The notes: a model not told the origin generated them from the letters alone. Positions 4,931-30,978 are shown, counted from the first letter of the stretch. The stretch: DNA of 64,000 bases from an uncultured delta proteobacterium (GCA_963803975.1 CAWDOY010000001.1:64001-128000), one strand, 5' to 3'. Numbers and translations are program-made.

Positions 4931-5148
4931 ACAGGCATCTATTAATAGGCTGTCGCTCCTGTTTTACTGAAATGTATGCAAATATTATTATTGACTCCCA
5001 TTATAAGCCAACCTATAACCTTTTTACCATATTAACCGGGATTTTTAACTTAATCGAACCAATCGTCATATATAGCAGCTTCGACATAATGCAAACCCTG
5101 TTCTTATGTTAGTCCTGTCGTGAATCATAGTAAGGGTATCAACTATTA

Positions 5149-7536
5149 ATGAAAACTACACCACTGACACGCGCACTCCAAGTGTTCTTACTGGCAATGG
5201 CTACCCTTATTCTTGAAGTGTCATTAACTCGAATTTTTTCCTTTATTACCTACTATCATTTTACCTATCTGGTGATCAGTGTGGCGATGTTAGGTTTTGG
5301 CGCAGCCGGCACCTATCTGACGATACACAAAACCGAAGACATTTCCTCCGACGGAGAGTTCCTCGCCAGCAATGCATGGTGGCTGAGCTTAAGCACGATT
5401 GCTTCAGTAGTTATTATTTCACGAATCCATTTCTATCCGGCTGATTTGTATCTTTACCGGGATTATAGCAACCTTTTCTCGCTCCTCATCATCGTTCTTG
5501 CAGCCGGCGCACCCTTTTTCTTCGGCGGAATATGTATCGGCTACATCATCAGTAATGCAGGCAGTGCCATCAACAGCGTATATTTTGCTGATCTTGCAGG
5601 AGCAGCTACCGGCTGCTTACTGGCCCTGGTGCTTATCAATTACCTCGGCGCTATTGCAAGCTGTTTTGCTGTTGCGGTCATCGCCATGGCAGTCGCAGCT
5701 TTTTCAAGCCGCCATAAGCAGCGACGGTATCTGGGAGGCTTACTCATTTCCATACTATTAACTGCTGTGATTGCGTACACAGATTTTTTTACACTATATG
5801 TGCCTCCGGATAAACATATGTTCAATTTTCAACACATGATTGAACGCATCAAGTGGCACGTGATCACCCGCCTGGATGTTTCGCAACCCATCGAAGATAA
5901 ATGTTCATTTGGTGGAGGACTATCCCTTCAATACAAAGGTGCACCGCAGAAAGTACGTTTGATCTTTCAGGATGGATCAAATTTGACCGGTATCATTAAC
6001 CCGACTCCGACACCTCTTGAGACCGCATCCTTAGGGTACTATATGCAAGGGGCACCGTATCAGGTAAAACCTCATGCTGAGGCACTGGTAATAGGATGCG
6101 GGGGCGGTGCAGATATTTTAATTGCCCTGCACTATAATGCCAAATTTGTTGTCGGGGTGGATGTAAATCCTCACATGATTGAGCTCATAAAGGAGACCTA
6201 TAAAGATTTTGCCGGCAATGTTTTCCAGCGCAGCGATGTTGAATTAAATGTTTCAGAAGGCAGACACTTTCTGAGCCGTGACCGGCGTACATTTGATGTA
6301 ATACAGCTCAGCGGAGTAGATACCTGGTCAGCCCTTTCTACGGGCGCCTATGCCCTTACCGAAAACTTCATCTACACCAGCGAGGCTTTTGATCAATATT
6401 TAGCTCATCTCAAAGAAGGCGGTATCGTAAATTTTTCACGCCCCTGCGGAGACCAGTTAACTGAAACACCGAAGTTAGCTGCTACAGCTCTCGACGCGCT
6501 CGGGCGTATTGGTGCATCCAATCCATCTCAACACCTTGTCGTGGTAAAGGGAATGGGATATGGTTCTGGCTGGCCGTGGGCTCAAACCCTGGTCAAGAGA
6601 TCACCGTTCACTCCAGCCGAGGTTGAGAAATTAACAAAATGGACTCAGTCAATGGGCTTTGAGGTGCTCTACGATCCTTACACCGTACGAAAAGGAGAAT
6701 TGGAAACCCTCATTCGGGCAAACCCCGGGGAGAGAGAACGACTTATTGCACAGCACTGGCTTAACATTCGTCCAGCCACTGATAATGCTCCCTTTTTTTT
6801 CCAATTTCATCGCTGGAGAGATGTGCTGAAAAGAAATTCTGCGGGGGGAAGACTGGCGCAATTTATTTTGCTGGCAAGTTTTGTTCAGGTCGCTTTTCTT
6901 AGTGGAATACTTATACTATATCCCCTGTATCGCAGAAAAACGATTGCCTCTCAGCCTGGAGGCCGTACAGGTATTTTCACCTTTTTTGCTGCGTTGGGGT
7001 TGGGATTCATCATTGTTGAGATTACACTATTACAGAAGTTTATGGTGTTTCTGGGCGGCCCTACCTATTCAATGGCTATTACACTGTTCACTCTTTTGCT
7101 CTTATCAGGCATCGGAAGCTTTCTCTCCCGTAATCTGTCTGAACATCCCTTTAGACTTCTCCGCGTCGTGATTCCGCTTCTGGCTGTGGTCATATGCCTG
7201 GAGGCCTTTTCCCTTGATCGTATAATGGCCAGTCTAATGAATCTCTCACCTTTGTTAAGATGTTTAGCAGTGATAATACTTATTGCACCCCTGGGGTTAT
7301 TGATGGGCATACCTTTTCCGGCTGGATTGCGATATGTTGATCAATTCAGACCCGAACTGAATCCATGGGCATGGGGAATTAATGCATGTGCAACGGTAAT
7401 GGGTTCCGGGTTTTGTATATTCATCAGTTCTGCACTGGGTTTTCGTTCAGCACTTATTTTCAGCTCAGCAGTTTATTTAACCGGCTGGTTTGTCCTGTCA
7501 ATTTCCCAAAGAAATAAGTCCCTCAAGGGACTTTAG
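5149..7536 (+). CDS. Membrane-bound spermidine synthase-like / class I SAM-dependent transferase
   Basis: N- and C-terminal TM bundles flanking LVIGCGGGAD, VDVNP, EGRHFL...FDVIQLSGVD; PATDNAPFFF; WAWGINACATV. Confidence 0.85.
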   Translation: MKTTPLTRALQVFLLAMATLILEVSLTRIFSFITYYHFTYLVISVAMLGFGAAGTYLTIHKTEDISSDGEFLASNAWWLSLSTIASVVIISRIHFYPADLYLYRDYSNLFSLLIIVLAAGAPFFFGGICIGYIISNAGSAINSVYFADLAGAATGCLLALVLINYLGAIASCFAVAVIAMAVAAFSSRHKQRRYLGGLLISILLTAVIAYTDFFTLYVPPDKHMFNFQHMIERIKWHVITRLDVSQPIEDKCSFGGGLSLQYKGAPQKVRLIFQDGSNLTGIINPTPTPLETASLGYYMQGAPYQVKPHAEALVIGCGGGADILIALHYNAKFVVGVDVNPHMIELIKETYKDFAGNVFQRSDVELNVSEGRHFLSRDRRTFDVIQLSGVDTWSALSTGAYALTENFIYTSEAFDQYLAHLKEGGIVNFSRPCGDQLTETPKLAATALDALGRIGASNPSQHLVVVKGMGYGSGWPWAQTLVKRSPFTPAEVEKLTKWTQSMGFEVLYDPYTVRKGELETLIRANPGERERLIAQHWLNIRPATDNAPFFFQFHRWRDVLKRNSAGGRLAQFILLASFVQVAFLSGILILYPLYRRKTIASQPGGRTGIFTFFAALGLGFIIVEITLLQKFMVFLGGPTYSMAITLFTLLLLSGIGSFLSRNLSEHPFRLLRVVIPLLAVVICLEAFSLDRIMASLMNLSPLLRCLAVIILIAPLGLLMGIPFPAGLRYVDQFRPELNPWAWGINACATVMGSGFCIFISSALGFRSALIFSSAVYLTGWFVLSISQRNKSLKGL

Positions 7537-7574: not shown

Positions 7575-8040
7575 TTACCTTCCAAGGGTGTTTCGCATGC
7601 GAAAGGTGCATTTGCTGTCGCCATCGCACATCCGGCGAGGCTCGGTAAATTCTCCCAGTTCCCTGGTTACTGCTTCCGTTGTCACCTCCTCTAATGCATG
7701 ACAAAACTCATTATCAAGTCCCCTTGTTTTAGACTCTTCAAGAAACGGGCAGTACGTAACTGAATATTGAAACTCATCAGGCTTAACATAGTCCAGTCTC
7801 GGTTACAAGCCCGAACATCCGGTCTGACATTCCGGCAAAGCTCGACATGGTTTGAAACGACAATCCCTTTGCCATGTCATTAACGCGCTTGTTTCCTCGC
7901 TCAAGTATCTTTTTGAATATATCCATACCCTTGCTGCCAAGGCTCTCCTTCAGCTCCTCAAAAACATCAAGCTTGAAGCTGACTATATGTTTTTGAAGAA
8001 AAGCGACCTGCTGTTCTGCGGGAATGTCATGTGTCGGCAT
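7575..8040 (-). CDS. ATC-hydrolase/V4R-like small protein, frameshifted near 7800
   Basis: Second frame reads ..YSVTYCPFLEE..FCHALEE..RMCDGDSKCTFRM*, the CP..C..GDxxCxF pattern; GGAGG RBS before 8040. Confidence 0.6.
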
Positions 8041-8250
8041 AATCTTCCTCCATTTGTTAACCGGCTGTTGAAAAATACCCATCTGTCCCGGCATGGCCGG
8101 GATTACGCTTATTGCCGATTGCGCTACCCCCCGGTGTCCCCCCTTTATAATTGTGCCATTTGGCGATGAGGGGTCAGATTTTTTCTTCCATGAACAACCC
8201 CGAAGCCCTGCGGCAGATGAAGCAATTCTCTGGTTGAGAGAGGATTGCTG

Positions 8251-8292
8251 TTGACTCGCATGATAAAAAGGTGTACAAAAATAATGTACACC
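8251..8292 (+). promoter_or_regulatory. Sigma70 promoter with overlapping palindromic operator of the TA operon
   Basis: TTGACT (8251)-17 bp-TACAAA; inverted repeat GGTGTACA-N7-TGTACACC (8270-8292) over the -10 region. Confidence 0.7.
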
Positions 8293-8307
8293 TTTAGGGA
8301 GGCTTAT

Positions 8308-8544
8308 ATGCAGGAAATAAATGTAAAAGAGATGCGCAGTAATTTAAGTGCGCTGCTGGAACGGGTCGAGCGCGGTGAAGAAATTGTCATTACCCGCCAC
8401 GGGAAAAAAATTGCCCGGTTGATATCGGCACGTAAAACCGCGGTATCGTTACCCAGCCTTGCCGAGTTTCGTTCTACGATTAAGGTAACGGGTGAATCCC
8501 TGGGTAAAACGGTCGTTGCTTTAAGAAATAAGGAACGCTACTGA
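8308..8544 (+). CDS. Phd/YefM family antitoxin
   Basis: NLSALLERVERGEEIVITRHGKKIARL; TGATG coupling to the toxin. Confidence 0.9.
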   Translation: MQEINVKEMRSNLSALLERVERGEEIVITRHGKKIARLISARKTAVSLPSLAEFRSTIKVTGESLGKTVVALRNKERY

Positions 8545-8969
8545 TGCTGTATCTGGATACCAGCGTTTTAACAGCCTATTACTGTCCTGAGCGAATCAGC
8601 CGGAAAGTTGAAAAGATTATTCTTCACACAAAGCAACCGGCCATCAGCTATCTTACCGCAGTTGAACTGGCCTCAGCGCTATCAAGAAAAATCCGCGACA
8701 AACAATTATCTGTTGCGGATGGAAACAAAATAATAGCGCAGTTCCATGCGCAGGTTGAGCAGGGGCTCCTGCTGTGGATGCCCGTTGAATTTCAACACTA
8801 TCAAATAGCCAAGGGCTGGATCGCCCAGTTTACCACACCGCTTAGAACCCTGGATGCCCTGCATCTTGCCGTTGCTTCCCAGCATGGTCTGACCCTTTTG
8901 ACCGCTGATGTCCAGCTTGCAGAATCAGCCGGTTTTCTGGGTGTAAGCGCACAGCTAATCAGTGAATAA
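8544..8969 (+). CDS. vapC: VapC PIN-domain toxin
   Basis: YLDTS, ELASAL, LRTLDALHLA, LLTAD PIN acidic motifs. Confidence 0.92.
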   Translation: MLYLDTSVLTAYYCPERISRKVEKIILHTKQPAISYLTAVELASALSRKIRDKQLSVADGNKIIAQFHAQVEQGLLLWMPVEFQHYQIAKGWIAQFTTPLRTLDALHLAVASQHGLTLLTADVQLAESAGFLGVSAQLISE

Positions 8970-9015
8970 ACAGAAATATTCCGGGGTTTCACCTCTATCC
9001 TTGCTTAACTAACCA

Positions 9016-10179
9016 ATGCACCGCCTCAACATCCTCTTCATCTGCTGCCTGGTCATCTTCACCGACATGGTGGGCTACAGCATCATCACCCCGAGCATCC
9101 CGCTCTTTGCCAAACTCTTTAAAGCCTCTGACACGGCCATAAGCTTTGCCTTTGCCGCGTACCCGATCGCGTTTCTCATCTTCATCCTGCCGTTCGGCTT
9201 TCTGGTTGACCGGGTGGGAAGAAACCACCTCATCATCGGCCTCGGCATGTTCAGTCTTGCTGCTGCCTGCTTAAGCCTGGTGTTCGCGGAATCGATCGCG
9301 GTCTTCTCCATCGGCCGCGCTTTCCAGGGCATCGGCTCCGCAGCCTCATGGGTGGCGGCACAGCCCCTGGCCGCGCAGCAGATCGACTCCTCGAAAAAGA
9401 AGGGGCTTGAGATAAGCTCCATCACCATTGCCTATGGTCTCGGCATGATTCTCGGGCCGCTCTTGGGAAGCATCGGCGGCCTGCGCACGCCCTTTTATAT
9501 TAATTTCTTTTTAGCTGCAGGGGTCGGTCTTGTGGCCCTCATATGGCTGAAAGGCGCGGAGCTCTCCGCGCGCATGATGGAGTATGATTATCTCTCCATT
9601 ATCAGGCGGCCGGGCATTATTGTCGCCTGTCTCACCATCATGTTTCTTTACGCAAGTCTCGGCATGATGGAGGTGCTCTTTCCCCTTTACATGGATTCTC
9701 TAACGTATTCCAAGGCGAGCATCGGCATGCTGTTTCTCATTCTCTCTGTCTTTCTCGTTATCGGCCAGCCAGGCACCGGCTACTGGATGGAGCGCAGCGG
9801 CCCCTACGCGCTTATTCTGACCGGGTTCTTCGCTCTTGCCTGCTCCCTTTCCCTGATGATAGTGTGTACGAGCTTTCGCGGCTGGGTTCCGGTCTTCATG
9901 GTATTCGGCGTCTTCATCGGCGCGCTCACCTCAGCCTCCATGCTCCTAATAGCTCAGAACAGCAGGCCCGGCGAGCAGGGCGCTGCCTACGGTATATGGA
10001 ACTTTTCCTTTTCCGTCGGATATCTCTGGGGCCCGGCCCTCGGGGGGGTGCTATCTGATTTTTCCCATAGCGCTATGCCATCCATGGGGTTTAAGACACC
10101 TTTTTTCTTCTTTTCCTTCCTTATTATTTGCTGCGCTGTTTTATTCAAACTGCTGGTTCGTAAGCCAAAAAAGGGATGA
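9016..10179 (+). CDS. MFS transporter (DHA1-like)
   Basis: About 12 hydrophobic helices, motif A GFLVDRVGR, GRAFQGIG, GPLLG/GPALGG. Confidence 0.9.
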   Translation: MHRLNILFICCLVIFTDMVGYSIITPSIPLFAKLFKASDTAISFAFAAYPIAFLIFILPFGFLVDRVGRNHLIIGLGMFSLAAACLSLVFAESIAVFSIGRAFQGIGSAASWVAAQPLAAQQIDSSKKKGLEISSITIAYGLGMILGPLLGSIGGLRTPFYINFFLAAGVGLVALIWLKGAELSARMMEYDYLSIIRRPGIIVACLTIMFLYASLGMMEVLFPLYMDSLTYSKASIGMLFLILSVFLVIGQPGTGYWMERSGPYALILTGFFALACSLSLMIVCTSFRGWVPVFMVFGVFIGALTSASMLLIAQNSRPGEQGAAYGIWNFSFSVGYLWGPALGGVLSDFSHSAMPSMGFKTPFFFFSFLIICCAVLFKLLVRKPKKG

Positions 10180-10511: not shown

Positions 10512-11940
10512 ATGATTAAAGAGTTGAAAGAGATAGTGGGGGCGAAAAATGTTCTGGACGATAAAGAGACCCTGGCGCTCTACGCCGCAGACCAGAGCCT
10601 CAGCTCCCCCAAAGAACCAGCTGTCGTTGTCAGGCCTAAAGACACTGCCGAGGTGCAGGAAGTCATTAAGTTTGCCAATAAAACCCTCACCCCGGTGGTG
10701 CCGGTAAGTTCAGGAATACATTTCTGGGGCGCCACGCTGCCGGAGCAGGGCGGTATCATCCTTGATCTCAGCCGCATGAACAAGATCCTTGAGATCGATG
10801 CGCAGAACCGGAAAGTAAAAATTCAGCCGGGTGTAACCTGGCCGCAGCTCATGGAAGCTTTAAAGGAGCATGACCAGATTCCGCTGAATCCTCTTTTCCC
10901 CCATCCCAAAACATCGGCTCTTACCAGTTCACTTGAGCGTGAGCCCATGCTTATCCCGAAATATGAATACGGCGACCCGGTGCTGACCATGGAAGTGGTG
11001 CTGCCCACGGGTGATATTTTTAAGACCGGGACTGCCTCAGCCGCAAACACCCAGGAAGGCTATCCCGGAAGGCCCGGGCATTGACTTTTACCGCTTCTTT
11101 CTGGGCGCCCAGGGAACCATGGGCATTGTTACCTGGCTGAATATTAAGACCGAATACCGGCCCAAACAGCAGAAAGCATACTTTGTCGCCTTTAACGAGC
11201 TGCAGGATGTGGCAGAGCCCATTTACCAGATACAGCGAAAACTGCTGGGCAATGAATGTTTTGTTCTGAGCAGGTATCTGCTGGCGCTGCTGCTCTGCGA
11301 AGGCGAGCAGAAGGAATTCGCAAAGCTTATGACGGAGCTGCCCCCGTACACGCTGGTGCTGGTGATCGCCGGTGCCCCGCGCCGCCCCCTTGAGAGAATT
11401 GCCTATGAGGAAGCGGCGCTGATGGAAATTGCCGGCCAGCTCAATTTTGAACCGAAAAAGACCGTTGCCGGTATTGCCGGGCTTGAAGCAGCGATCCTTG
11501 AGAAGCTTCGCAACATACCCGCAAACGGCGACTACTGGAAGACGAGCTTCAAGAATTCTACGCAGGACATTTTCTTTATTACTACCATGGATCGTGCCGC
11601 GGACTTTGCTGACCTGGCCCTCACCCATGCAGCCTGCTACGGTTTTAACATCAATGAGGTAGGGATATACCTGCAGCCGTTAGAGCGTGGCCGCGCCTGC
11701 CATCTCTGTTTCTCGCTGCCGTGTGACCTGGGGAGCGAGGCGGAAAAAGAAAAGGTAACAAGCCTCTGCCTTGAGCTGAGCGAGCAGCTCATCCTTGAGG
11801 GGGCGTTCTTCACCCGTCCCTACGGCCCCTGGGCAGACATGGTGTATAGAAGGACCACCACCTACACCAGCACCCTGAAGGAGCTGAAAAAGATTTTTGA
11901 TCCGAACCATATTCTGAACCCCGGAAAACTATGTCATTAA
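10512..11940 (+). CDS. FAD-binding oxidoreductase (GlcD/VAO-type), frameshifted near 11064
   Basis: PAVVVRP, GGIILDLSRMNKI, GAQGTMGIVT, C-terminal KKIFDPNHILNPGK; removing one C from TATCCCGG joins the two ORFs. Confidence 0.88.
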
Positions 11941-13731: not shown

Positions 13732-15367
13732 CTAAAGCTGTGCGCCGCAGGTCCATGTTTCCGTGAGCCCGCGGTCTTTATGCCGCAGGAAGGCCCGCAT
13801 CTCCACCAGCGGCCTTCTGTCAGGCGGGGTTTTATCAACAAGGGTCGGGTCGCTTTCAGGCTTCACGGTGAACACCAGGCGCCAGCCGTTGGTAACACTA
13901 TTTTTATATACCTGCTGCTCCAGAAGCCGTCCGCCGGAGCCAACGCTCACAATGCCTTCCACCGGGTCTCCCGCCTTCAGCTTTTCAAGCTCGCTGCCTT
14001 CAAAATCGACAATGAATTTTTTAATATCCGGCTGCTTCGGCGTTTCAGTCCTTGTTGCGACAACGCGTCCCGCGGGCGGGCGGGACTGATCCGGATAATG
14101 CCAGCTTAAGGTGTAGGCGAATGATAGCGGCTGCCCGACAGGTGCTGCTGCCGGCCGCCAGAAGGCAACGATGTTATCATGGATTTCATCATCAGTGGGA
14201 ATCTGCACCAGCTCAACCCAGCCCTTGCCCCACTTGCCTTTCGGGGTACACCAGAGGCTCGGGCGATAGTCATACCGTGCCTCCAGGTCCTGATAGTGAT
14301 CAAAATTCAGATCACGCTGGACAAGGCCAAAGCCTGCAGGGCTGTCTGCCTGAAACGCGTTGACCCAGAGCCCCTTGGGGTTGAACAGCGGCCGCCAGAG
14401 CCATTCGCCGTTTTCCATGTGAATCATGAGGCCGTCTGAGTCGTGTATTTCAGGCCGGAACCAGTCTTTGGGCCGGATATTACTATTTTCACCGTAAAAG
14501 AACATGCTGGTCATGGGAGCAATGCCCAGCTTGTCAGCGCCCTTGCGCAGGAAGATGGTGCACTGCGTATCCATCAGGGTTTCTTTGCCCGGCGTGATCA
14601 CAAATGAGTATGCCCCTGCTACCCGCGGGCTGTCAAGCAGGGCGATAGACGGTTATCGTGGTATCACCGGGCTCGGGGCGCTTCACCCAGAATTCGCGGA
14701 ACCAGGGAAACTCCTCACCCGATGGCTGCGCCGTGTCAACCGCGAGGCCGCGCGCTGAAAGGCCGTAGTGCATTGATTTGGCCACAGCCCTGAAGTAGCT
14801 TGCCCCGAGAAAAACCGCCACCTCATCCTTATAGGTTTCATTATTCAAGTTGTAATGAATTCTGAAGCCTGCAAATCCAAGGTCCTGGGGAATTTTTGCC
14901 TTAAGCTCCTGCGCGCTTTTTTCATAGACAAAAAGGTCAGTGGAAAAACTGATGGGGACCGGCCCTGCAGGCAGTATCTCATTTACTTTTACTGTGCGGT
15001 CAAAATAGAGGCCGGCATGGAAGAACTGGAGCTCAAACGGCAGGTTTTCTTTCCGCCAGTGAGACTTGTCGGGGATGAAGCGGATATCGCGCATCTGATC
15101 ATAGGTGATGTCAAGAAGCCATTGCGGCATCTTGCCCCGCGGGTCCTCATACGCCGCGGAAGAAAGCCTTTGGGCCTTCTCGACAACATCGTTAAAGCCG
15201 TACTCCGGCTTCGGCGACTGCTGCGTCTTTTTTGTCTGTTTTTCTTTTGCCCGGGCATGGATGTCCGGCGAGAAAGAAAAAAATATAAAACCAAGAATCG
15301 CGAAGAACAAAACAGTTTTTGATACACGCAGAGCTGTCGTTGATAGCGTTGTGTTGTTCATGGGCAT
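13732..15367 (-). CDS. opgG: Periplasmic glucan biosynthesis protein G/D (OpgG/MdoG), frameshifted near 14645
   Basis: YDQMRDIRF, FLGASYFRA, YGLSARGLA, GEEFP.FREFW, RPEIHDSDGL, EIHDNIVAFW; one extra C breaks VYALLDSP. Confidence 0.9.
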
Positions 15368-15508
15368 TTTCAATATCCTTTCCGTCTCCTGGTGAAGAAA
15401 CAAGAATAGCTTTTCATTATGCCGGCTATGAGCTTTCCTGCCGCAGTTATTGCTGCTCACAGCAGCATATATACTATACTAACTGTTTTTGCTGAGTCAA
15501 ATATGATT

Positions 15509-18500
15509 TTACTGTTTATCTCTCAGGGAAGACGCGTCGCTGGCACTGTCGCGTATAATTTTCCCGTCTTGCTGCGCTGCTGTATATTCCCTGCCCTTAT
15601 AAACCAGGCGCTTCACCGTGAGCGTTCCCTTTCGGCAGAAAAAGCGTATCCGGGATGACAAGGCTGCCGTTTTGCATGGTAAGACCAAGGATTTTGTATG
15701 CGGTAAAAAGCATGCGGGCTGCCGCACCGGTGTACCAGCTCCATCCCCCGCGGCCGGCGTAGCCGTAGCCATAGTAAACATCCGCCGGCTGCTGATGCGG
15801 CGGCAGGCCATAGCGGTCAATCCTCTCAGGAGTGATATCATCAAGCGGCGAAATCTTTATCCACACCTTCAATGCCCTTGCCAGATACTGCCCGGCGCGA
15901 TTTTCGTCGCCCGCAGAACGGGAAAGCTCTGAAAGTTTCACCAGGGCGTCCACAAGCCATGATGCCCCGTGTGAATACTGGCCGCCGTTTTCCCGGACCC
16001 CCGGCGGATAGTCGGAAAGCTTACCGGGATTCGGGCGAGAGCTCTCAGTGAAAGCAGGGGAGAGCAGCAGCACCAGGTTTTCCTGCTCAAGGTCCTTCAG
16101 CCCCTGCTCCACGGCGCAGGCTCCCCGGTCAAAATCAGCGGCACCCGAAATCACGGGCCAGGATGCGTTCAGGGCATCGTTTAAAACCATTTCCTCGCCG
16201 CTGTCGGTGATTGCGCGCACGTAACGCTGCTCATCACGCCACATGGCAGCGAGTGCTTTGCGCAGCTCTGCCGCCCGGTCAAGGTAGAATGTTTTCTTTT
16301 CATCGCCTTCCTTGAGCCCTGCGATGTTTGCAAAATGCGTGAGAATATCGTAGAGAAAAAACCCCAGCCAGGTGCTCTCGCCGCGGCCCCGGAAGCCCAC
16401 CAGGCTCAGGCCGTCATTCCAGTCCCCGGTGCCGATGAGCGGCAGGCCGTGTTCTCCAAGCCGCTGCAGTGTTAAATCCAGGGCTCTGACGCAGTGCCAA
16501 TAGAGCGGTTCGCGGTCACGTGACAGCCGGGGGGCAAACATCACGCCTTCCCGGTCGCGCGGAATGCGCCTTCCTTCCAGATAGGTAAGCTCTTCATCAA
16601 GTATGGTCAGATCTCCGGTTGCCTCCACGTACTGGTACACCAGATAGGCCAGCCACAGATGAGGGTCAGACGCGCGGTTGCGCGCGCCCAGACCGGTCCG
16701 GTCTTCCCAGCTCTGGTGCCACCACTGCATGACATCGCCGGCAAAGAACTGCTGCCCGGCATGAAGAAGTATCTGACTGCGCGCCATCTCAGGGTGCAGG
16801 TAGAGAAACGGCAGCAGGTCCTGCAGCTGGTCGCGATACCCATACCCTCCGCTTCTCTGGTTGGGGCCGGTTCTGCCCCACAAATGGGCGGCAAGCACCT
16901 GGTAGGGAAGCCAGTCATTCACCATGCGGTCAAAGCCCGGATCGCTGGTTTCAATTCTCATCACGGACAGGGTTTCCGCCCACCAGCGCTCTGTTTTTTT
17001 CAGAGCCGCATTGGCCGCTGATTTGTCCAGAAGACCACGGATAATTGTGCGTGCCTGATCCGCATCCCCGGCCTGACCCACAACCATGACCATGTTCTCC
17101 TCAGCCCCCGCGGGAATAGTAAGGGTTCCGCAGAAGCCAGCTATTCGATAGCCGTCATCCAACACATCCGCGCATGGTATGCCGTGCTCGACCATAAAAG
17201 GATTGGTAAGATCTCGCCCATTGCCGCCCACAAATCGGGAGCGTACTGTTTCATAGGCCAAAACCTTCAGGCTTGTTGCCACAAACGCCGTGCCCCGGTA
17301 AAAATCGTTTTGGGGGTTTGAGAAGAACAAAGCCCGGGTGCTCTCATCATATTCGGCGCTGATTTTCCCGCGCGTGTCAGATGGAATTTCCCCGAGCATA
17401 ATCTGCAGGTAGGGCACCACCCGGTACGTCATGGTCCGGGAAGATTTATTTTTTATTTTCAGCCGCCGTACTTCCGCCGGTTCGTGCGGCGGCACAAAGA
17501 GCGTGTATTCCAGGTCAACGTCAGGGGTCTCTTTCCGGTAAACAGCATACCCGCGGCCGAAGGTGATGTCGCAGGGTTCATCGGTTCTGCGAAACGGCAA
17601 AAAGGTCGGACTGTCAAGAGCGCCTGTTTCCATGTTGTAAAGATAGAGCGCCTGACCGGGGACCTGCACCGGGGCATTGTTCAGCGAAAACGGCGTAACG
17701 CCGTTCTGCTGAGAGTTGCCCATGAAGGAATAGATCTCACCCTCATTGTTGAGCACCACGCCATACTCACGCTCATTGGCAATAACATGGGTCCATGGCC
17801 GGGGCGTGTCCCAGTCCATGGAAAGCTCGGTGCCGTCAGGAGAAAAAGAGAAAAGCGTTTTTTTGCTGCCGGGTTTTGTCCCGGCCTCTTCTGCTTCATC
17901 TGTCGGAGCGCCGAAGCCGTGCAGTATCCGGCGCTTGTCAAAGGAGGCCTGCAGCGCCTTCTGCGAGCTGACCGGGAGCTTCAGATATTTTTTAATCAGC
18001 TGCTGTGCCTGCTCCATGCTGGCTGCATAGCCGTCGGCAAACACAACCTCCGTGGAGCCGTGCGGGGCAAGTCCACAGTGCAGCCGCAGGCTGGCTGCAG
18101 GGTCAAAGGTGTACAGGAGCCCCTCATCAGAGAGTCTCCGCGGTCTTTCCTGCAGGCCCGCAGGCATGCGCAGGCTGCCGTGGCCGATGAAGAACAGCCG
18201 CGAATCTTCATAGCCGGCGAGCAGAATATTGCCGCCCGGGTTCTCCCCCACCGCGTGAAAAGCGACCTCGGGTGATACTTTTCTTTGTATTGGATCAAAA
18301 TTTGAATCTTTCAGGAGACGGTTTCGGGCTATGATGGCATTAAGGCCCGGAATAAACCATGTGCCGATATGGATATTATTGAAGTCAGGATGCCGCAGAT
18401 ACGCGTCTGAGACATTCAGCGCAAACTCCCGGTAGCTGGTCAGCTCTATGGTGCGGGCCCGGCTTTCAAGGTTGGTGAGCTTCAGGGTCCACAGCTCAAC

Positions 18501-21137
18501 CGTGTCCTGGCAGTCAATGCGCACAATTGCTTCCGCCCTGATTCCGTTCCAGGTATTCACCATGCGCAGCGAAGACCGGTCAAGCTGGGTAACGCAGTAG
18601 TCCTCTCCCACCCGGCGCATGGGCTGGCAGGTAAGAGACCATAGCCGTGCAGGCGCATCAGGAGGCATATCCAGGTCTTTAAGATAGAAAAATTTGCCGC
18701 GCAGCTGCAACGGGTCATGGAGCCTGCGGGTAAGATCAATTTCATTGCCCGGGCGCACTGAGCTGAACACCCTGCTCCAGCCCCGCCCGTCAGCTGCAAG
18801 CGTCAGGGTATAGAAGCCGTTGTGTATGACAAAGGTTGTGCCGTCAAGACCCGGATTGGCTGTTTCCTGTCTCCGTGAGGCTGCCTGCTGCGGATGCGCA
18901 CCGCGCGAAGGCCGGTCTTTATTCAGCTGCCGCGCAAGCAACACAACCCCGACGAATAATGAAATTGTCAAGAATACTCCCGGGAGGAGTGCCTGCGGGA
19001 ATAGTGCCAGCGGATGAGCTTTGGCTATGGCCTCAGCACCATCCCAGGCAACATTCCAGTCACTGCCGCGGGGAATGTAAAACGGGATTAACAGCGGCGC
19101 CCACGTGGCAAACCGCCGCAGGCCCGATGGTATCACGCGCGTCCTCATTGCATGGCCGAGAAAACGCGCCGTCTTTTCATCGACCACATCCATGCCGACA
19201 AACGACAAATTCACCAGCGTTGCCACGCGCAGGCCCATGTGATCTATAAAGATGGCAATGCGCACCCAGTCGTAGGCCAGAAGATTGGTGAAGGTCTGCA
19301 GGCTCCAGGCACGGAACGCCGCGGGCGAGGAGGTGAGGCTTTTCATTGTCGCGACAGCAGTGCGCAGCGCGCCGTCCTGATTGTACCATGACGGATCAGG
19401 CGACATGCGCAGGAAGGAATAGATGATCGGCGCCATCCACAGGCCCCAGCGCTGCACGCGGAAAGCCTGCTCGACCATTGCCACGATACCCTGCCGGGTA
19501 AAAAGGTTTTTCAGCGGCGCCGTGCTTCTCTGGACCAGCGCGGTCAGCGCCACCAGGTTGATGCTGAACAGGGGCGCCGCGATCGACCAGTTGATGACGC
19601 CGGAGAGCGATTCGTTGAAGAAAAGGCGCACGCCGCCGGTCACCGCGCCGAGGTTCATCGCGCCCCACTTGCTGAACAGCGGGTAGATCACATAGTCCTC
19701 GACTTTAATCCCTGCGGAAGCATAAAAGAGGGTTGCGTAGTTTTTAAATTTTGCCGCCACCACCGCCGCCTGCATGGTGTCAAAGTACCAGCAGAGCGCC
19801 CCGCCCGCAAGGCCGCCCATAATCGCCTCGGTGATGTAGATTCTCGGGGCCTGCACGCGCAGCCGATTCCCAAGGAGCGTGACGTTCAGCACATCACGCA
19901 GCAGGTTGACGGCAGCGTAGGCCGCGGCACCAGCCGCGATTCCATAGAGGAAGCGGGCTGCAGGGGCTGCGGCGGGCAGACCCTCGCGCACGGCAAAGGC
20001 AACTACCGCACCGACAACACCGCCGCGCAGGCAGTGATCCCAGCGGGAATAGTTGCTTCTGAGGCGCATGACAAACGGCAGGCTGCCTTCAAAGCTTTCA
20101 ATAATATTTTTAATGAACGGGAAGATGATGACGCCGGCTATGCCGGCACAGCTAACAGGATAAGCTGTGAGCAGGGTCCGGACGCCCGGAACTGAGAGCG
20201 CTCCGGCAGCCGCGTGGATCAAGCCCATAAACACCGCGCTGTACACAGCGCCCTGGGTGAAGCCGCTTTTATAATGTCCCGGCCCCCAGTACCAGGCGGG
20301 GTGCTTAGAGTGCAGGGAATCCATAATAAGCCCGGTGAGCAGAAACGTCTGCCCCCACAGGCCTGCCTGCGAAACAGTCGCCGCGGCAATGGCTGCAAGC
20401 GCGCCGACGACAGGCGGAAGAGCTGCTACCCCGGCCCCTGAGCCGAGGCCCGCGATCGCGGGAGTGGCGGATGAGAACAGGGCACTCGCGAGAAGAAGCG
20501 CGTGCATCCGCGCATCCGTAAGGAGCCTTCCCGCGAGCAGCAGGGTCAGGCCGTTAGCGACCGCTTCATTGATAACGATAAGAACAGCCGCTTTCCCCAT
20601 CCACTGCAGCACATCAGGGGTAAGCTTTGCGTTGAAGGCAAAAAACCGCCCGATGCTTTCAAGCATTATTGGTGACTGCAGCACGAGCAGGCAGTTGAAA
20701 AGCAACGGCACTGCCAGGGTAAAGCTGCCGGCAACAGGAGAAACATGGCGGCCTTTGGAGGAAGCACAGTAGGCAATGATTAAAAGATAGCTGATACATG
20801 CTGCTGCCGCGGCTGGGCTGGTTATGGAAAACAGCTCATGCCAGGCAACAGGCGCCTGCCATATCTTCAAATCTGGGGCGGCAGCGGCTGCCAGCGCGCC
20901 GGCTATAAGAGCATCCTGCAGGGCTTCAGGCATGGTAAGGTGGCAGCGCGTAAAGCCGTATGTTATTATCTCGGCAGCAAGCATGCCCAGCAGGGCAGCA
21001 ACAATAATAGTCGGCGCAGTTCCCCCCTGCTGCACAGCAATGGCAGCGGCAGCAATCGCGCAAGCGCCTGCCACATATAATAATGTCTGAGCCAGTAATC
21101 CTTTATTGTTTTCCAGTATACTGTCTGCCTGCTGCAT
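15509..21137 (-). CDS. Polytopic membrane domain fused to a GH94 glycoside phosphorylase (Cgs/NdvB C-terminal-like); frameshift near 15627
   Basis: About 740 hydrophobic N-terminal residues, two GH94 beta-sandwich regions, SGGYGYRDQLQD, IGTGDWNDG, YPPGVRENGGQYSH, GRGGWSWYTGAA. Confidence 0.88.
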
Positions 21138-21411: not shown

Positions 21412-21446
21412 AAAAAAGGGCAGGGCCATTACCTGACCCTGCCCTT
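21412..21446 (-). terminator. Rho-independent terminator
   Basis: AAGGGCAGGG/CCCTGCCCTT stem followed by a T-tract on the minus strand, downstream of the gene ending at 21499. Confidence 0.75.
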
Positions 21447-21498: not shown

Positions 21499-21961
21499 TT
21501 ACTGGCCGGCCGTTGTATTCTCCTCGCCAAAACAATTTGACAGATTGAGTATCACCGGGATAAACTTTGGCAGAGAACACGCCCGGTCCTCGCCGCAGGT
21601 CGCCCTTATTTCCGCTACAGCCACTATGGTATTAGATATACAGGCAATATAAGGCAAGATTCGGGTCATCCGGATTGGTGCATACCACAGTATCCAGCAG
21701 CGCATCCAGAAGTATTGCTGATCTGCATACTATATCTTCACCACATGCATCGAGTTTACCGAGATTCTGATTAGCCGCACTGAGAATGCAGAGGCCCACG
21801 GCTAACCCATCTCCTGATGCCTGGGGTGAGATTTTTGTGTTGAGCGCTGCCAGCTGTTTAAGGTTAACAGAAGCTGACTGTGCCTGGGGCAGTCCGGCTA
21901 TTGCTAAAACTGCCAGTAAAACTGCCAACATAACGATCGATTTAGTTTTTCTGCTTTTCAT
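21499..21961 (-). CDS. Secreted Cys-rich hypothetical protein, frameshifted near 21655
   Basis: Signal peptide; joined frames give two CGEDxxC units (CGEDIVC, CGEDRAC); GGAG RBS. Confidence 0.6.
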
Positions 21962-22928: not shown

Positions 22929-24146
22929 TTGATGCAGAGAGTCATAGCAGCAGGGAAGACTTTTTTACTGATACTCTCTCTTGTCCTTATCTCTCCGCTG
23001 GCGAGCGAGGGGGCCAAGCCCCAGGAAGTGGCCGCTCCCCCGTCCCCTGAAAAGATTCAGACCGCCGCATCTGCAGCAAACAGCCAGAATAAAAAAGCCG
23101 CGATAAAAAAAACAGCGTATCGGAAACACCGCGCTAAATCTGCGTACCACAGGCAGGCAGCTGCCCCGCAGCGTGCTTCGAAGATTTCCAGAAAAATATG
23201 CCGGCCTATTTATGCACGCAGTCTTGAAGAGCTTCAGGGCCCGCTCCCGGAGATTGTTGCTGCGGAAATCAGTAAATTGCGGAATAACCGCCACCTGCTC
23301 AATAGCGACGACATATCAATACATATTCACGACTTGAAAAAGGATGAGACGGTGGTCAACATAAAGGCTGACCGGATACGCAATGCCGCAAGCCTTATCA
23401 AACCGCTTGTCATGCTTACCGTGTATGATCTTGCCTTTCAGAACAAACTCTGCCTCACGGATTCAATAGAAACGCATATATATAAAATGATCACCGTAAG
23501 CAACAACGAATCCACCAACAGCCTGATTCGCCTGGTCGGGGACGGCAGTACGGTGCGGGGGCTGGAGAAGATTAATGCTACTGTCAGGAAATACGGTTTC
23601 CGGGACACCTATCTTGTGGAAGCTATTCCTGAAGGCGGCAGGACCTACCGCAACCGGACATCTGCCTATGACCTGAGCGAATATTTCCGGAAGATTTACA
23701 AGCGCAGCATTATCTCGCCCCATTATTCCCAGAAGATGATCGATGTTCTGCTTGATAACCATGTGCGCCGCATCAAAACAGCGGTGCTGGTTCAGGACGG
23801 CGTGCCGGTTGCGGACAAGACCGGGTATGTGTGCGGGACGAACGGTGACAGCGGCATTGTTTTCCTGCGCAATATCAACCGGAATGCCTCTGACTATGTC
23901 ATTTCCATCATTATTGAAAATCCATACCGGCCGACCAATGGATGGGGAAGGCGCAAGACCGAGGTAATCCGCCATCTGTCAAACGTCATCTATTCTTATT
24001 TCAGACAGCAGCAGGCAGCCCAAACCGCCCGTAGCCGCGACCAGCAAGGGATAGCGCTTTCCTGTGCACCATCACCCCGCCTGATACGCTGCGATCAATG
24101 CGTTAATCTTTTCTTCTATTATCAATTCAGCCGCAATAACATCTGA
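22929..24146 (+). CDS. Exported serine hydrolase, class A beta-lactamase/PBP-like fold
   Basis: ASLIK (SxxK), SNN (SxN), DKTG (KTG); signal peptide and basic low-complexity linker. Confidence 0.85.
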   Translation: MMQRVIAAGKTFLLILSLVLISPLASEGAKPQEVAAPPSPEKIQTAASAANSQNKKAAIKKTAYRKHRAKSAYHRQAAAPQRASKISRKICRPIYARSLEELQGPLPEIVAAEISKLRNNRHLLNSDDISIHIHDLKKDETVVNIKADRIRNAASLIKPLVMLTVYDLAFQNKLCLTDSIETHIYKMITVSNNESTNSLIRLVGDGSTVRGLEKINATVRKYGFRDTYLVEAIPEGGRTYRNRTSAYDLSEYFRKIYKRSIISPHYSQKMIDVLLDNHVRRIKTAVLVQDGVPVADKTGYVCGTNGDSGIVFLRNINRNASDYVISIIIENPYRPTNGWGRRKTEVIRHLSNVIYSYFRQQQAAQTARSRDQQGIALSCAPSPRLIRCDQCVNLFFYYQFSRNNI

Positions 24147-28862: not shown

Positions 28863-29223
28863 GGACTTGGGGACATTGTTTCTTTGGAATGGGGGATAGG
28901 CACCTAATTTTAAAATGAGAGGATTGGCTGCATCAAGCGGTCACGTTCCAGGAGTATGCTGCCATGGATTAGTTTCGCTGCTATCCCTACACCACCAATA
29001 TATTTTTCTGCAAGCTGTTCTGGAAGAGGGATTTTCCGGGAGCTTTCCGATATAACCTTTGTACCTCATACATATCCTTTTCTTTTTTTACTAAATCAAA
29101 ACCGATGACTATCCTCATTATTTATGTTATCTAATATATATAAGGAATAGTAACGATTTAAAAAAGTCAGTATAGGATTATCACTGCACGTTACAAATGA
29201 ATTACCCTTTAAAAGGAGGATAT

Positions 29224-30978
29224 ATGACAAGACGAGACCTAAAAAGCACACTGTCAATCTTCACCGTCTGTATTATGACCGCTGCAGTTTTTTTAGTGTA
29301 CACCGGGTGTACAAAGCAAAACAATATCCCGGAAGCACTTGATTCGGTCACAGGTGAAGACGGAACTACCTGGGAGCGCGTCACCGAGCCTGGCTTTGGC
29401 AATGGTAACAATATTTCTGTGGCAGCCATTGGAGAATACAAGGGCCGTATCTATGCAACGACCCGTAATGATGTTGAAGGAGCAGAGGTATGGAGAACCA
29501 ACGGTAACGGCTGGGAACAGGTAGAAATAGTCGCGGGATTTAAACACGGCATCTATGGCAACACCATGCTTAACAATCTGTGGAGCAAGATGGTCGTTTT
29601 CAAGGATAAACTGTATGTCGGTTTTTCCGCAGGCCTGCAGGGGACCGTGCTGCAATCATCAGGCTGTGAAATCTGGAGTTATGATGGGAAAACCTGGGAA
29701 CCGGTTGTGTCTGACAAAAAAGATATTGATGAAGCTGGTACCATCACTGCCATTGCCGGATGTGAGGATAAGGATGCGGAAATCACTGCACAGTTTACTG
29801 ACAGTGCAAAGAACTGGACCGCTAACGAATGGGCTGGCGGCGTATTACAAATCACTTCCGGTCAGGGAGCATACCGCAGGTTTGATATTGTGAGCAATAC
29901 TGCCAACACCCTTACCATACAGCAGAATGAAACCACCGGTGATTACGGGAAAGAATACACGGTGTGCGGCACAAAACATTATTCTAATCCCTTCCCTGTA
30001 TATGAGTATGACCTTGGCCCAATAAAGCTCGGTGATAGTTATGAAATAGGTATCGGGACTGATGAAAATGGTTTTGGCGACTACTGGAACAAGACCGTCA
30101 CGGAAATGCTGGTATTTGATGACAAGCTCTATGTAAGCACCGGCCTCAACTATGACAATGGCGCCCAGGTATGGTTTTCGGAAGATGGAGAGACCTGGCA
30201 GGTAACCCAGCCGCCCAACAGCTTCGGTAATTACCATGATGATCCAAATTATAAAGATGGCAAAAAGGCCGTCAGCAGCAGCATCAGCGATATCGGTGTG
30301 TCTGACGTGTCAGGAAAGCCGGTGCTCTATGCAGCAGGCACCGGTACCACGGGAGCCAAAGGCCGCTGCACCCGCATGGCAAAGCTTACCAGCACCGGGT
30401 GGGAGCTCATTGTTGACTCAGATGTTGATGCAAATGACACCGGCACCAACGAAAACGGCTTTGGCGATGGCCTGGGGTGCACCATGAATAACGGTAATTT
30501 CATGGGCTGGAGCCTGCAACATTTCAAAGATAAATTGTATGTCGGCATCAATTCACTCGGCGGCACCAGGGTACTGTATACGCCAAACGGCAGTTCCGAA
30601 GATGGCAACTGGTTTTTCAGTGTCGGTCCGGGCACCCCGTATCCCATAGGCTTTGATGGCCAACTGCTGCAGACAGATGACCCTAACTTCATCGGCACCT
30701 ACAGGAATATAGCCAACAACCTCTTCGTGTTTGATGATGTACTGTATGCCGGAGTTATTGACCAGAAGAGTGAAAAGGTTGAGACCGGGATACCGCTCTG
30801 GAAAACCCCTGATGGGATAACCTGGACCAGGATAACTGACAACAGTTTTGGTCAAACCGCAGCGCTGGCCTTTGAGGGTTTTGCCACATGTTTCGACGCT
30901 ATGTACGTAGGAGTGAACAACGCTTCTTCTTCCCAGTCAAATACCGGAGGCGCAACGATCTTCCGGATGGCTAAATAA
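29224..30978 (+). CDS. Lipoprotein with repeated beta-propeller-like units
   Basis: Lipobox YTGC; recurring F.DKLYVG / G.E.W...G..W / NGFG motifs; AGGAGG RBS. Confidence 0.75.
   Translation: MTRRDLKSTLSIFTVCIMTAAVFLVYTGCTKQNNIPEALDSVTGEDGTTWERVTEPGFGNGNNISVAAIGEYKGRIYATTRNDVEGAEVWRTNGNGWEQVEIVAGFKHGIYGNTMLNNLWSKMVVFKDKLYVGFSAGLQGTVLQSSGCEIWSYDGKTWEPVVSDKKDIDEAGTITAIAGCEDKDAEITAQFTDSAKNWTANEWAGGVLQITSGQGAYRRFDIVSNTANTLTIQQNETTGDYGKEYTVCGTKHYSNPFPVYEYDLGPIKLGDSYEIGIGTDENGFGDYWNKTVTEMLVFDDKLYVSTGLNYDNGAQVWFSEDGETWQVTQPPNSFGNYHDDPNYKDGKKAVSSSISDIGVSDVSGKPVLYAAGTGTTGAKGRCTRMAKLTSTGWELIVDSDVDANDTGTNENGFGDGLGCTMNNGNFMGWSLQHFKDKLYVGINSLGGTRVLYTPNGSSEDGNWFFSVGPGTPYPIGFDGQLLQTDDPNFIGTYRNIANNLFVFDDVLYAGVIDQKSEKVETGIPLWKTPDGITWTRITDNSFGQTAALAFEGFATCFDAMYVGVNNASSSQSNTGGATIFRMAK

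Follow-up and report, generated by a model that had tools for sequence, protein, structure and literature searches.

The gene analyzed here resembles parts of three described systems. It lies on the (−) strand of a 64,000-nucleotide stretch of DNA from an uncultured delta proteobacterium (GCA_963803975.1, CAWDOY010000001.1:64001-128000; we call this whole stretch the window), it encodes a polytopic membrane domain fused to a GH94 phosphorylase ("the fusion"), and it is followed by opgG. The first system is the cyclic β-1,2-glucan synthase Cgs. Like Cgs, the fusion is predicted to be an inner-membrane protein with a cytoplasmic C-terminal GH94 part of the GP1-GP2-GP3 layout, and it keeps the equivalents of D2393 and D2528 of Cgs. 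In contrast to Cgs, it has no GT84 domain, no GH189 cyclase, and no Rossmann-like insert, and its 18 predicted transmembrane helices are unrelated in sequence and fold to the 6 helices of Cgs.

Second, in a catabolic cluster of Listeria, the phosphorylase SOGP (Lin1839/LpSOGP) is found with an ABC importer, so that oligoglucans are taken up and then phosphorolyzed by a cytoplasmic GH94 enzyme (PMC3960220, in excerpt). Uptake of β-1,2-glucooligosaccharides followed by GH94 phosphorolysis is also the model that we propose for the fusion. However, SOGP is soluble and distant (5H3Z matches the family profile with E = 0.0014), whereas the fusion has a membrane domain and a phosphorylase in one chain. 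Third, as in the OpgGH system, there is an OpgG-type protein with an acid equivalent to D361, and one subgroup of the fusions (subgroup 1) depends on genomes that have opgH and opgG. But the fusion is not OpgH (there is no profile match) and it is optional.

The fusions are a widespread and uncharacterized family that supplements OpgGH and most likely serves in glucan recycling. Such a pathway would be of a known kind (SOGP-like phosphorolytic salvage); what is new is the fusion to an unclassified membrane domain, with a real chance that it represents a new class of transporter. The turnover and reclaiming of periplasmic β-1,2-glucans have no account in the literature that we examined, which was partly in excerpt and in which we found no description of a salvage component of the OpgGH pathway; the fusion family is a single-gene candidate for this role. 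We found no paper on the fusion architecture in the literature searched, and supplements to GH94 surveys (e.g., PMC9052796) could list members. By term counts in a preprint (bioRxiv 10.1101/2025.04.21.649730), GH94, OpgH, and a gene cluster are not mentioned.

The phosphorylase and the membrane domain

The features of the fusion gene and of opgG are as follows (positions are those of the window and residues are those of the fusion protein).

15509-21137 (−): fusion gene, about 1,875 amino acids after removal of a 1-base assembly insertion near 15627-15633
15690-16985 (−): GH94 catalytic domain, with D1436 at 16830-16832 and D1575 at 16413-16415
17076-17819 (−): second GH94 β-sandwich, GP2-like, residues ~1107-1354
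17979-18866 (−): first GH94 β-sandwich, GP1-like, residues ~758-1053
18903-21137 (−): polytopic membrane domain, residues 1-745, with 18 predicted transmembrane segments and both ends predicted to be cytoplasmic
19038-19685 (−): most conserved core of the membrane domain, residues 485-700
13732-15460 (−): opgG (GH186 family), with an N-terminal hydrophobic, signal-like stretch
15473-15500 (−): between the fusion gene and opgG, a match to a sigma70-like promoter (TTGACT-16-TATAGT) by consensus only

Pfam identifies two GH94 supersandwich stretches and a GH94 catalytic domain, and the GH94 domains PF06165 and PF17167 score 260 and 237 bits against curated cut-offs of 23 and 27. The best match in the PDB is the C-terminal part of Cgs (8RF9/8RF0, E = 1e-130), and cellobiose and chitobiose phosphorylases match far more weakly (E = 1e-42 to 1e-46). 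The alignment begins at residue 758 of the fusion and covers 1530-1804 and 2047-2760 of 8RF9; in place of the Rossmann-like insert, the fusion has a linker of 54 residues (versus ~243 in Cgs). D1436 aligns to D2393 of Cgs and D1575 aligns to D2528, which are the residues that were mutated to inactivate the phosphorylase of Cgs (PMC10901819, in excerpt). The motifs RDxxQ, DW(N/D)D, and ENxxQYxH are kept in 109, 108, and 109 of 109 full-length homologs, and the catalytic motifs are kept in 53 and 56 long homologs from the two subgroups, with one D-to-N exception. Judged by its domains and active site, the fusion is a member of GH94, whose enzymes act at the non-reducing end (PMC11842490, in excerpt), and its closeness to Cgs and its neighbors suggest reversible phosphorolysis and β-1,2 specificity.

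The membrane domain is confidently predicted to be an 18-helix fold (AlphaFold2 pLDDT of 90.2 and pTM of 0.89) that was unmatched in the searches that we ran. Pfam gave nothing significant in residues 1-740 and NCBIfam gave no match at all; neither these databases nor PDB sequence and profile searches, the Atlas, Foldseek (whole domain and core), or VIA (whole domain) yielded a family or a fold. For the whole domain, the VIA rows spanned mainly residues 171-513, so to call the domain a proven "new fold" would be too strong. No internal repeats were detected by hhalign. The N-terminal profile did not match Cgs in the PDB or by hhalign, which argues against a GT84 domain, and the hhalign probability for OpgH was 0.2%, which argues against a GT2 domain. 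PF10091, the marker for the GH189 cyclase, was not found in the fusion protein or in the assembly. A truncated or mis-assembled Cgs was considered and rejected because full-length homologs have the N-terminal domain and GH94 in one continuous chain and because this domain is unrelated to Cgs.

Predicted inside loops have 1.36-2.94 lysines and arginines per 10 amino acids and predicted outside loops have 0.27-0.92. As this alternation holds across all 19 loops, the predicted topology has 18 transmembrane helices and places the GH94 part in the cytoplasm. Mean column conservation is 0.75-0.80 over residues 501-700. The core (residues 485-700) consists of predicted periplasmic loops and four transmembrane helices of low hydrophobicity, polar and rich in tryptophan, with invariant W, N, R, D, and H residues. 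In particular, invariant D632, H633, R637, and N643 share one predicted transmembrane helix, and invariant W584-Y585-N586-Q587-D588 lies in a predicted periplasmic loop. The core is a candidate for the path of the glucan. The helix with D632 and the W584-D588 loop also have a density of invariant residues that is typical of active sites, so the membrane domain could be an enzyme or a sensor (e.g., an intramembrane transferase acting via Asp632-His633, or a sensor of periplasmic glucan that regulates the phosphorylase), which we consider quite unlikely.

These results bear out most of what a first-pass annotation of this DNA had said about the protein. The large protein is real (it was put at about 1870 amino acids), and the quoted motifs were all located (YPLFSKWG at 485, QRWGLWMAP at 562, WYNQDGA at 584, DHMGLRVATL at 632, and WNDG at 1573). 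Pfam, the PDB match, and the alignment of D1575 agree with its description of the C-terminal part as a phosphorylase of the Cgs type with an intact WNDG acid motif. Domain and transmembrane prediction plus AlphaFold and Foldseek, as it had suggested for the N-terminal domain, gave 18 predicted helices and no match to GT84 or another synthase. Its view that the N terminus is not GT84 agrees with sequence, profile, and Foldseek comparisons, in which the domain matched neither Cgs nor OpgH.

The protein is conserved far above chance: a sequence search with residues 440-745 found 1,141 proteins, and 447 representatives (50% clustering) match residues 1-740. Databases currently misname the family "cyclic beta-1,2-glucan synthetase." Cultured hosts include Roseiarcus fermentans, Lichenibacterium minor, and Lichenifustis flavocetrariae.

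Dependence of subgroup 1 on genomes with opgH and opgG

The window's own genome (98% complete) encodes opgG and opgH together on contig C49, which is the only contig that NF003956 (OpgH) matches. (This locus, L103, at C49:35339-39419, has a canonical opgG, a small ORF, and an opgH that is split by a frameshift, probably because of another assembly indel.) Also, C18:33197-34345 encodes the C-terminal 383 amino acids of a canonical Cgs that is cut by the end of the contig; this fragment is 91.6% identical to the Cgs of a genome from the same genus (G041).

Fusions of subgroup 1 are found in Thermodesulfobacteriota, Alpha-, Beta-, and Gammaproteobacteria, and Myxococcota. Of the genomes behind the 80 subgroup-1 loci, we tested 50, and this selection took in all 16 in which opgG is adjacent to the fusion. 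All 50 have opgG and 48 have opgH. Both of the genomes without opgH are opgG-adjacent cases, and one of them has a fragment of opgH at a contig edge beside the fusion; the 34 genomes without an adjacent opgG all have opgH. A PF10091 frame of Cgs length is present in 11 of the 50 (12 if one partial frame is counted). Among 41 relatives, all 11 carriers of the fusion have opgH and none of the 20 genomes that lack opgH carry the fusion, while 10 of 30 non-carriers have opgH. In a sample of the phylum, the fusion is present in 4 of 201 genomes, all within the 8 that have opgH, and in a sample of the class around G081, it is present in 4 of 351, all within the 54 that have opgH (some genomes occur in more than one of these samples, and related genomes do not count as independent cases). 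As most genomes with opgH lack the fusion (it is present in 4/54 in the class sample and 4/8 in the phylum sample), it is optional, as would be predicted for a role in salvage. Thus, the subgroup-1 fusion depends on genomes with opgH and opgG, and it is an optional add-on to OpgGH. A link to Cgs rather than OpgH was also considered and was not borne out: in the class sample, none of the 5 genomes with Cgs and without opgH carry the fusion, although this number is small.

The first-pass annotation had proposed a system without OpgH or GT84. It was correct that there is no opgH inside the window, but the proposal fails for the genome and for subgroup 1, given the opgG-opgH pair on C49, the cgs fragment on C18, and opgH in 48 of 50 genomes with the fusion. 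The co-occurrence that makes an OpgH-replacing synthase unlikely, together with opgH on C49 and the nesting within opgH genomes across samples, leads us to reject an OpgH-replacing pathway altogether. The annotation had also stated that its idea would fall if opgH were elsewhere in the genome and the pairing with opgG were not conserved. opgH is indeed elsewhere; the pairing is conserved. Similarly, its proposed survey of co-occurrence confirmed the link to opgG and contradicted the expected absence of opgH.

In the window, opgG lies 3′ of the fusion gene on the same strand, as had been noted, and it is a single gene once an assembly insertion is removed. Its product matches PF04349 (MdoG) with 231 and 335 bits, it is nearer to OpgG (1e-75) than to OpgD (1e-52 to 1e-59), and it has Asp (14176-14178) at the position of D361 of E. 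coli OpgG, which is the general acid (PMC10514313, in excerpt). Across subgroup 1, 16 of 80 loci include opgG, or 9 of 31 clusters after dereplication. The adjacent OpgGs do not form one clade (supported branches of a 38-row tree force at least 5 label changes), so the pairing looks to have been recruited repeatedly; a dedicated clade of OpgG is not supported by this tree. A GH192-like partner was found in none of the 50 subgroup-1 genomes, in a search without a positive-control genome, and no ABC system consistently flanks the subgroup-1 loci.

Two other genes recur beside the fusion. In L089 (at 5030-7345) and nine similar alphaproteobacterial loci (10/80), a gene for a membrane H+-pyrophosphatase is directly 3′ of the fusion. 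A link via phosphate is conceivable, and synteny among kin is equally likely. In L041 (at 7844-9046), L054, L057, L058, and L059 (5/80), a gene for an MFS transporter is directly 5′ of the fusion.

The nesting within opgH genomes would also be expected if the fusion were an accessory to OpgH, that is, a membrane-anchored, Cgs-like length control that trims the nascent chains of OpgH in the cytoplasm without transport. The GP domain of Cgs has exactly such a role (PMC10901819, in excerpt), and opgH is within 10 kb of the fusion in 3 of 80 loci. However, opgG is a commoner neighbor than opgH (16 versus 3 of 80), and 18 helices with a strongly conserved core that partly faces the periplasm exceed what an anchor would need. 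Given these points and the second subgroup, an accessory role seems rather unlikely.

Glucanase neighbors and the proposed import of β-1,2-glucan

Subgroup 2 comprises longer metagenomic homologs (80 loci, on contigs only), and a branch with support of 1.0 sets it apart from subgroup 1. Within reach on these contigs, none of the 80 loci has opgG or opgH. Instead, a secreted GH192-like family is beside the fusion in 23 of the 80 (a 24th, divergent match, in L167, is excluded from this count). The members (L104:11709-13763 and 22 similar loci, alignment A6) have ~700 amino acids, no Pfam match, and an extra C-terminal domain. Their profile matches 8XUJ, the GH192 β-1,2-glucanase EeSGL1, with E = 7.5e-8, and the catalytic D149 and E221 of EeSGL1 align to invariant D246 and E333, so this family is a candidate for a new subfamily of β-1,2-glucanases that is distantly related to EeSGL1. 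Another 8 loci have PF10091 glucanase-like (GH144-like) genes (six by Pfam, and L125 and L133 by tblastn). Overall, a glucanase neighbor of either kind is present in 31 of 80 loci, or in 16 of 34 clusters after dereplication.

Some of these loci look like uptake clusters. L173, L129, and L125 encode ABC sugar permeases, a solute-binding protein, a ROK-family protein, a CBM11 protein, and a stand-alone GH94, and their gene content resembles that of the catabolic cluster of Listeria (PMC3960220, in excerpt). More broadly, L173, L129, L125, and L133 are large β-1,2-glucan clusters with stand-alone GH94, CBM11, PF10091 glucanases, TPR, the fusion, ABC permeases, and ROK.

The extra length of subgroup 2 includes 1-5 N-terminal repeats of ~150 amino acids in 69 of 80 fusions; subgroup-1 loci have none. 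Because the repeats are preceded by a signal-like stretch (62/66) and followed by an extra transmembrane helix (66/66), they are predicted to be periplasmic. Among Atlas clusters with an assigned family, those closest to the repeats are galactose-binding-like, CBM30, and Lyase_N (0.90-0.92), and the repeats possibly bind glycans. The core motifs of the membrane domain are kept in 52-76 of the 80 fusions, beside GH192- or GH144-like glucanases and with no opgH nearby, which is a further argument against an OpgH accessory. The constant theme across both subgroups is an extracytoplasmic β-1,2-glucanase of changing family, a membrane domain with a polar core, and a cytoplasmic phosphorylase of the Cgs type.

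We favor, at somewhat better than even chances, the explanation that the fusion is a salvage importer: a glucanase supplies β-1,2-glucan, the membrane domain passes it inward, and GH94 releases glucose-1-phosphate. In the proposed mechanism, a periplasmic β-1,2-glucanase (here OpgG) would yield linear chains, and the membrane domain would thread a chain to the cytoplasm. The fused phosphorylase would then free glucose-1-phosphate from the non-reducing end of the chain, and stepwise phosphorolysis could ratchet the threaded chain inward without ATP, as the reverse of a processive synthase. Cytoplasmic phosphate normally exceeds glucose-1-phosphate, so such a ratchet is possible.

We favor import because the subgroup-1 fusion is nested in genomes with a source of glucan, because the constant neighbor is an extracytoplasmic β-1,2-glucanase while its family varies, and because uptake-type genes (ABC permeases and a binding protein) are present in L173, L129, and L125. 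Also, the repeats of subgroup 2 are predicted to be periplasmic, the predicted topology puts GH94 inside, and the catalytic motifs are kept. The first-pass annotation had offered a coupled importer-phosphorylase as one of its two options, and the nesting and the glucanase and uptake-type neighbors support that option. In a stronger version, the fusion would represent a new transporter class, with a new fold, that imports polysaccharide by means of its own phosphorylase and is the missing recycling arm of periplasmic-glucan metabolism; this is a tentative proposal to which we give less than even chances. Uptake that is driven by phosphorolysis, if confirmed, would couple energy to transport in a new way.

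Several observations weigh against import. A glucanase neighbor leaves the direction unfixed, as periplasmic glucanases are partners of synthases too (e.g., OpgG of OpgH). Most subgroup-1 loci (64/80) have no opgG in reach, and only 13 of the 62 with room downstream have one; in the window, the promoter-like match before opgG means that co-transcription with the fusion gene is not a given. An ABC importer is already encoded in some loci of subgroup 2. The membrane domain matched no transporter fold (MFS, ABC permease, PTS IIC, or others) in Foldseek or in the whole-domain VIA rows, which spanned mainly the stretch given above, and the candidate channel is proposed from conservation and polarity. 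A CBM (carbohydrate-binding module) identity for the repeats found no support from Pfam, from a PDB profile, or from two profile comparisons with CBM11-type neighbors. Finally, the genome samples behind the nesting overlap and include kin. The architecture, the intact active-site residues, the dependence of subgroup 1 on genomes with opgH and opgG, and the recurring glucanase neighbors are observed directly; the topology, the substrate, transport, and its direction are inferred.

Alternatively, the fusion could be a synthase and exporter, in which GH94 extends β-1,2-glucan with glucose-1-phosphate as the donor and drives the chain outward through the membrane domain, and the neighboring glucanase then frees the chain or sets its size. 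If so, it would be a glucan synthase that needs no nucleotide sugar. The geometry is the same as for a processive synthase, the pairing with a periplasmic glucanase fits, and the lack of opgH and opgG in reach in subgroup 2 is consistent with it; also, SOGP polymerizes β-1,2-glucan from glucose-1-phosphate in vitro (PMC3960220, in excerpt). However, nearly all genomes with a subgroup-1 fusion already have OpgH to make the polymer, the window's own genome has a cgs fragment as well, and subgroup 2 has uptake-type neighborhoods. The excess of phosphate over glucose-1-phosphate in the cytoplasm also favors phosphorolysis. We therefore consider synthesis and export unlikely, and import remains the reading that we prefer.

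Gene model and other genes of the window

The ORF of the fusion gene as it stands in the window (15597-21137, (−) strand, 1,846 amino acids) includes one surplus base near 15627-15633. This base is absent from independent contigs of runs X1 and X3, and the frame-shifted tail (15509-15844) matches the C terminus of a close homolog (P0001), so the true gene runs from 21137 to 15509. Similarly, opgG is broken into 14633-15460 and 13732-14601 by one surplus base at ~14644-14646, which likewise does not occur in the contigs from these two runs. An assembly error is the most likely cause of each break, with opgG intact in nature. A pseudogene reading of the two frameshifts was ruled out because both extra bases are absent in contigs of two other runs. 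In an RNA run (X19), 27 of 30 bins are covered, but by divergent contigs.

Upstream of the fusion gene, a Cys-rich ORF of 109 amino acids (21632-21961, (−) strand) begins in a signal-like way and matches nothing in Pfam, and it is followed by a strong terminator-like hairpin (21416-21446). Elsewhere in the window, an FAD-linked oxidase (10512-11940) is in two frames beside a CCG/Fe-S protein, probably because of an assembly indel. A Beta-lactamase2 (PF13354) family protein with a long low-complexity N terminus is encoded at 22929-24146 (+), and a secreted-looking protein of 593 amino acids, with no Pfam match, is encoded at 29197-30978 (+).

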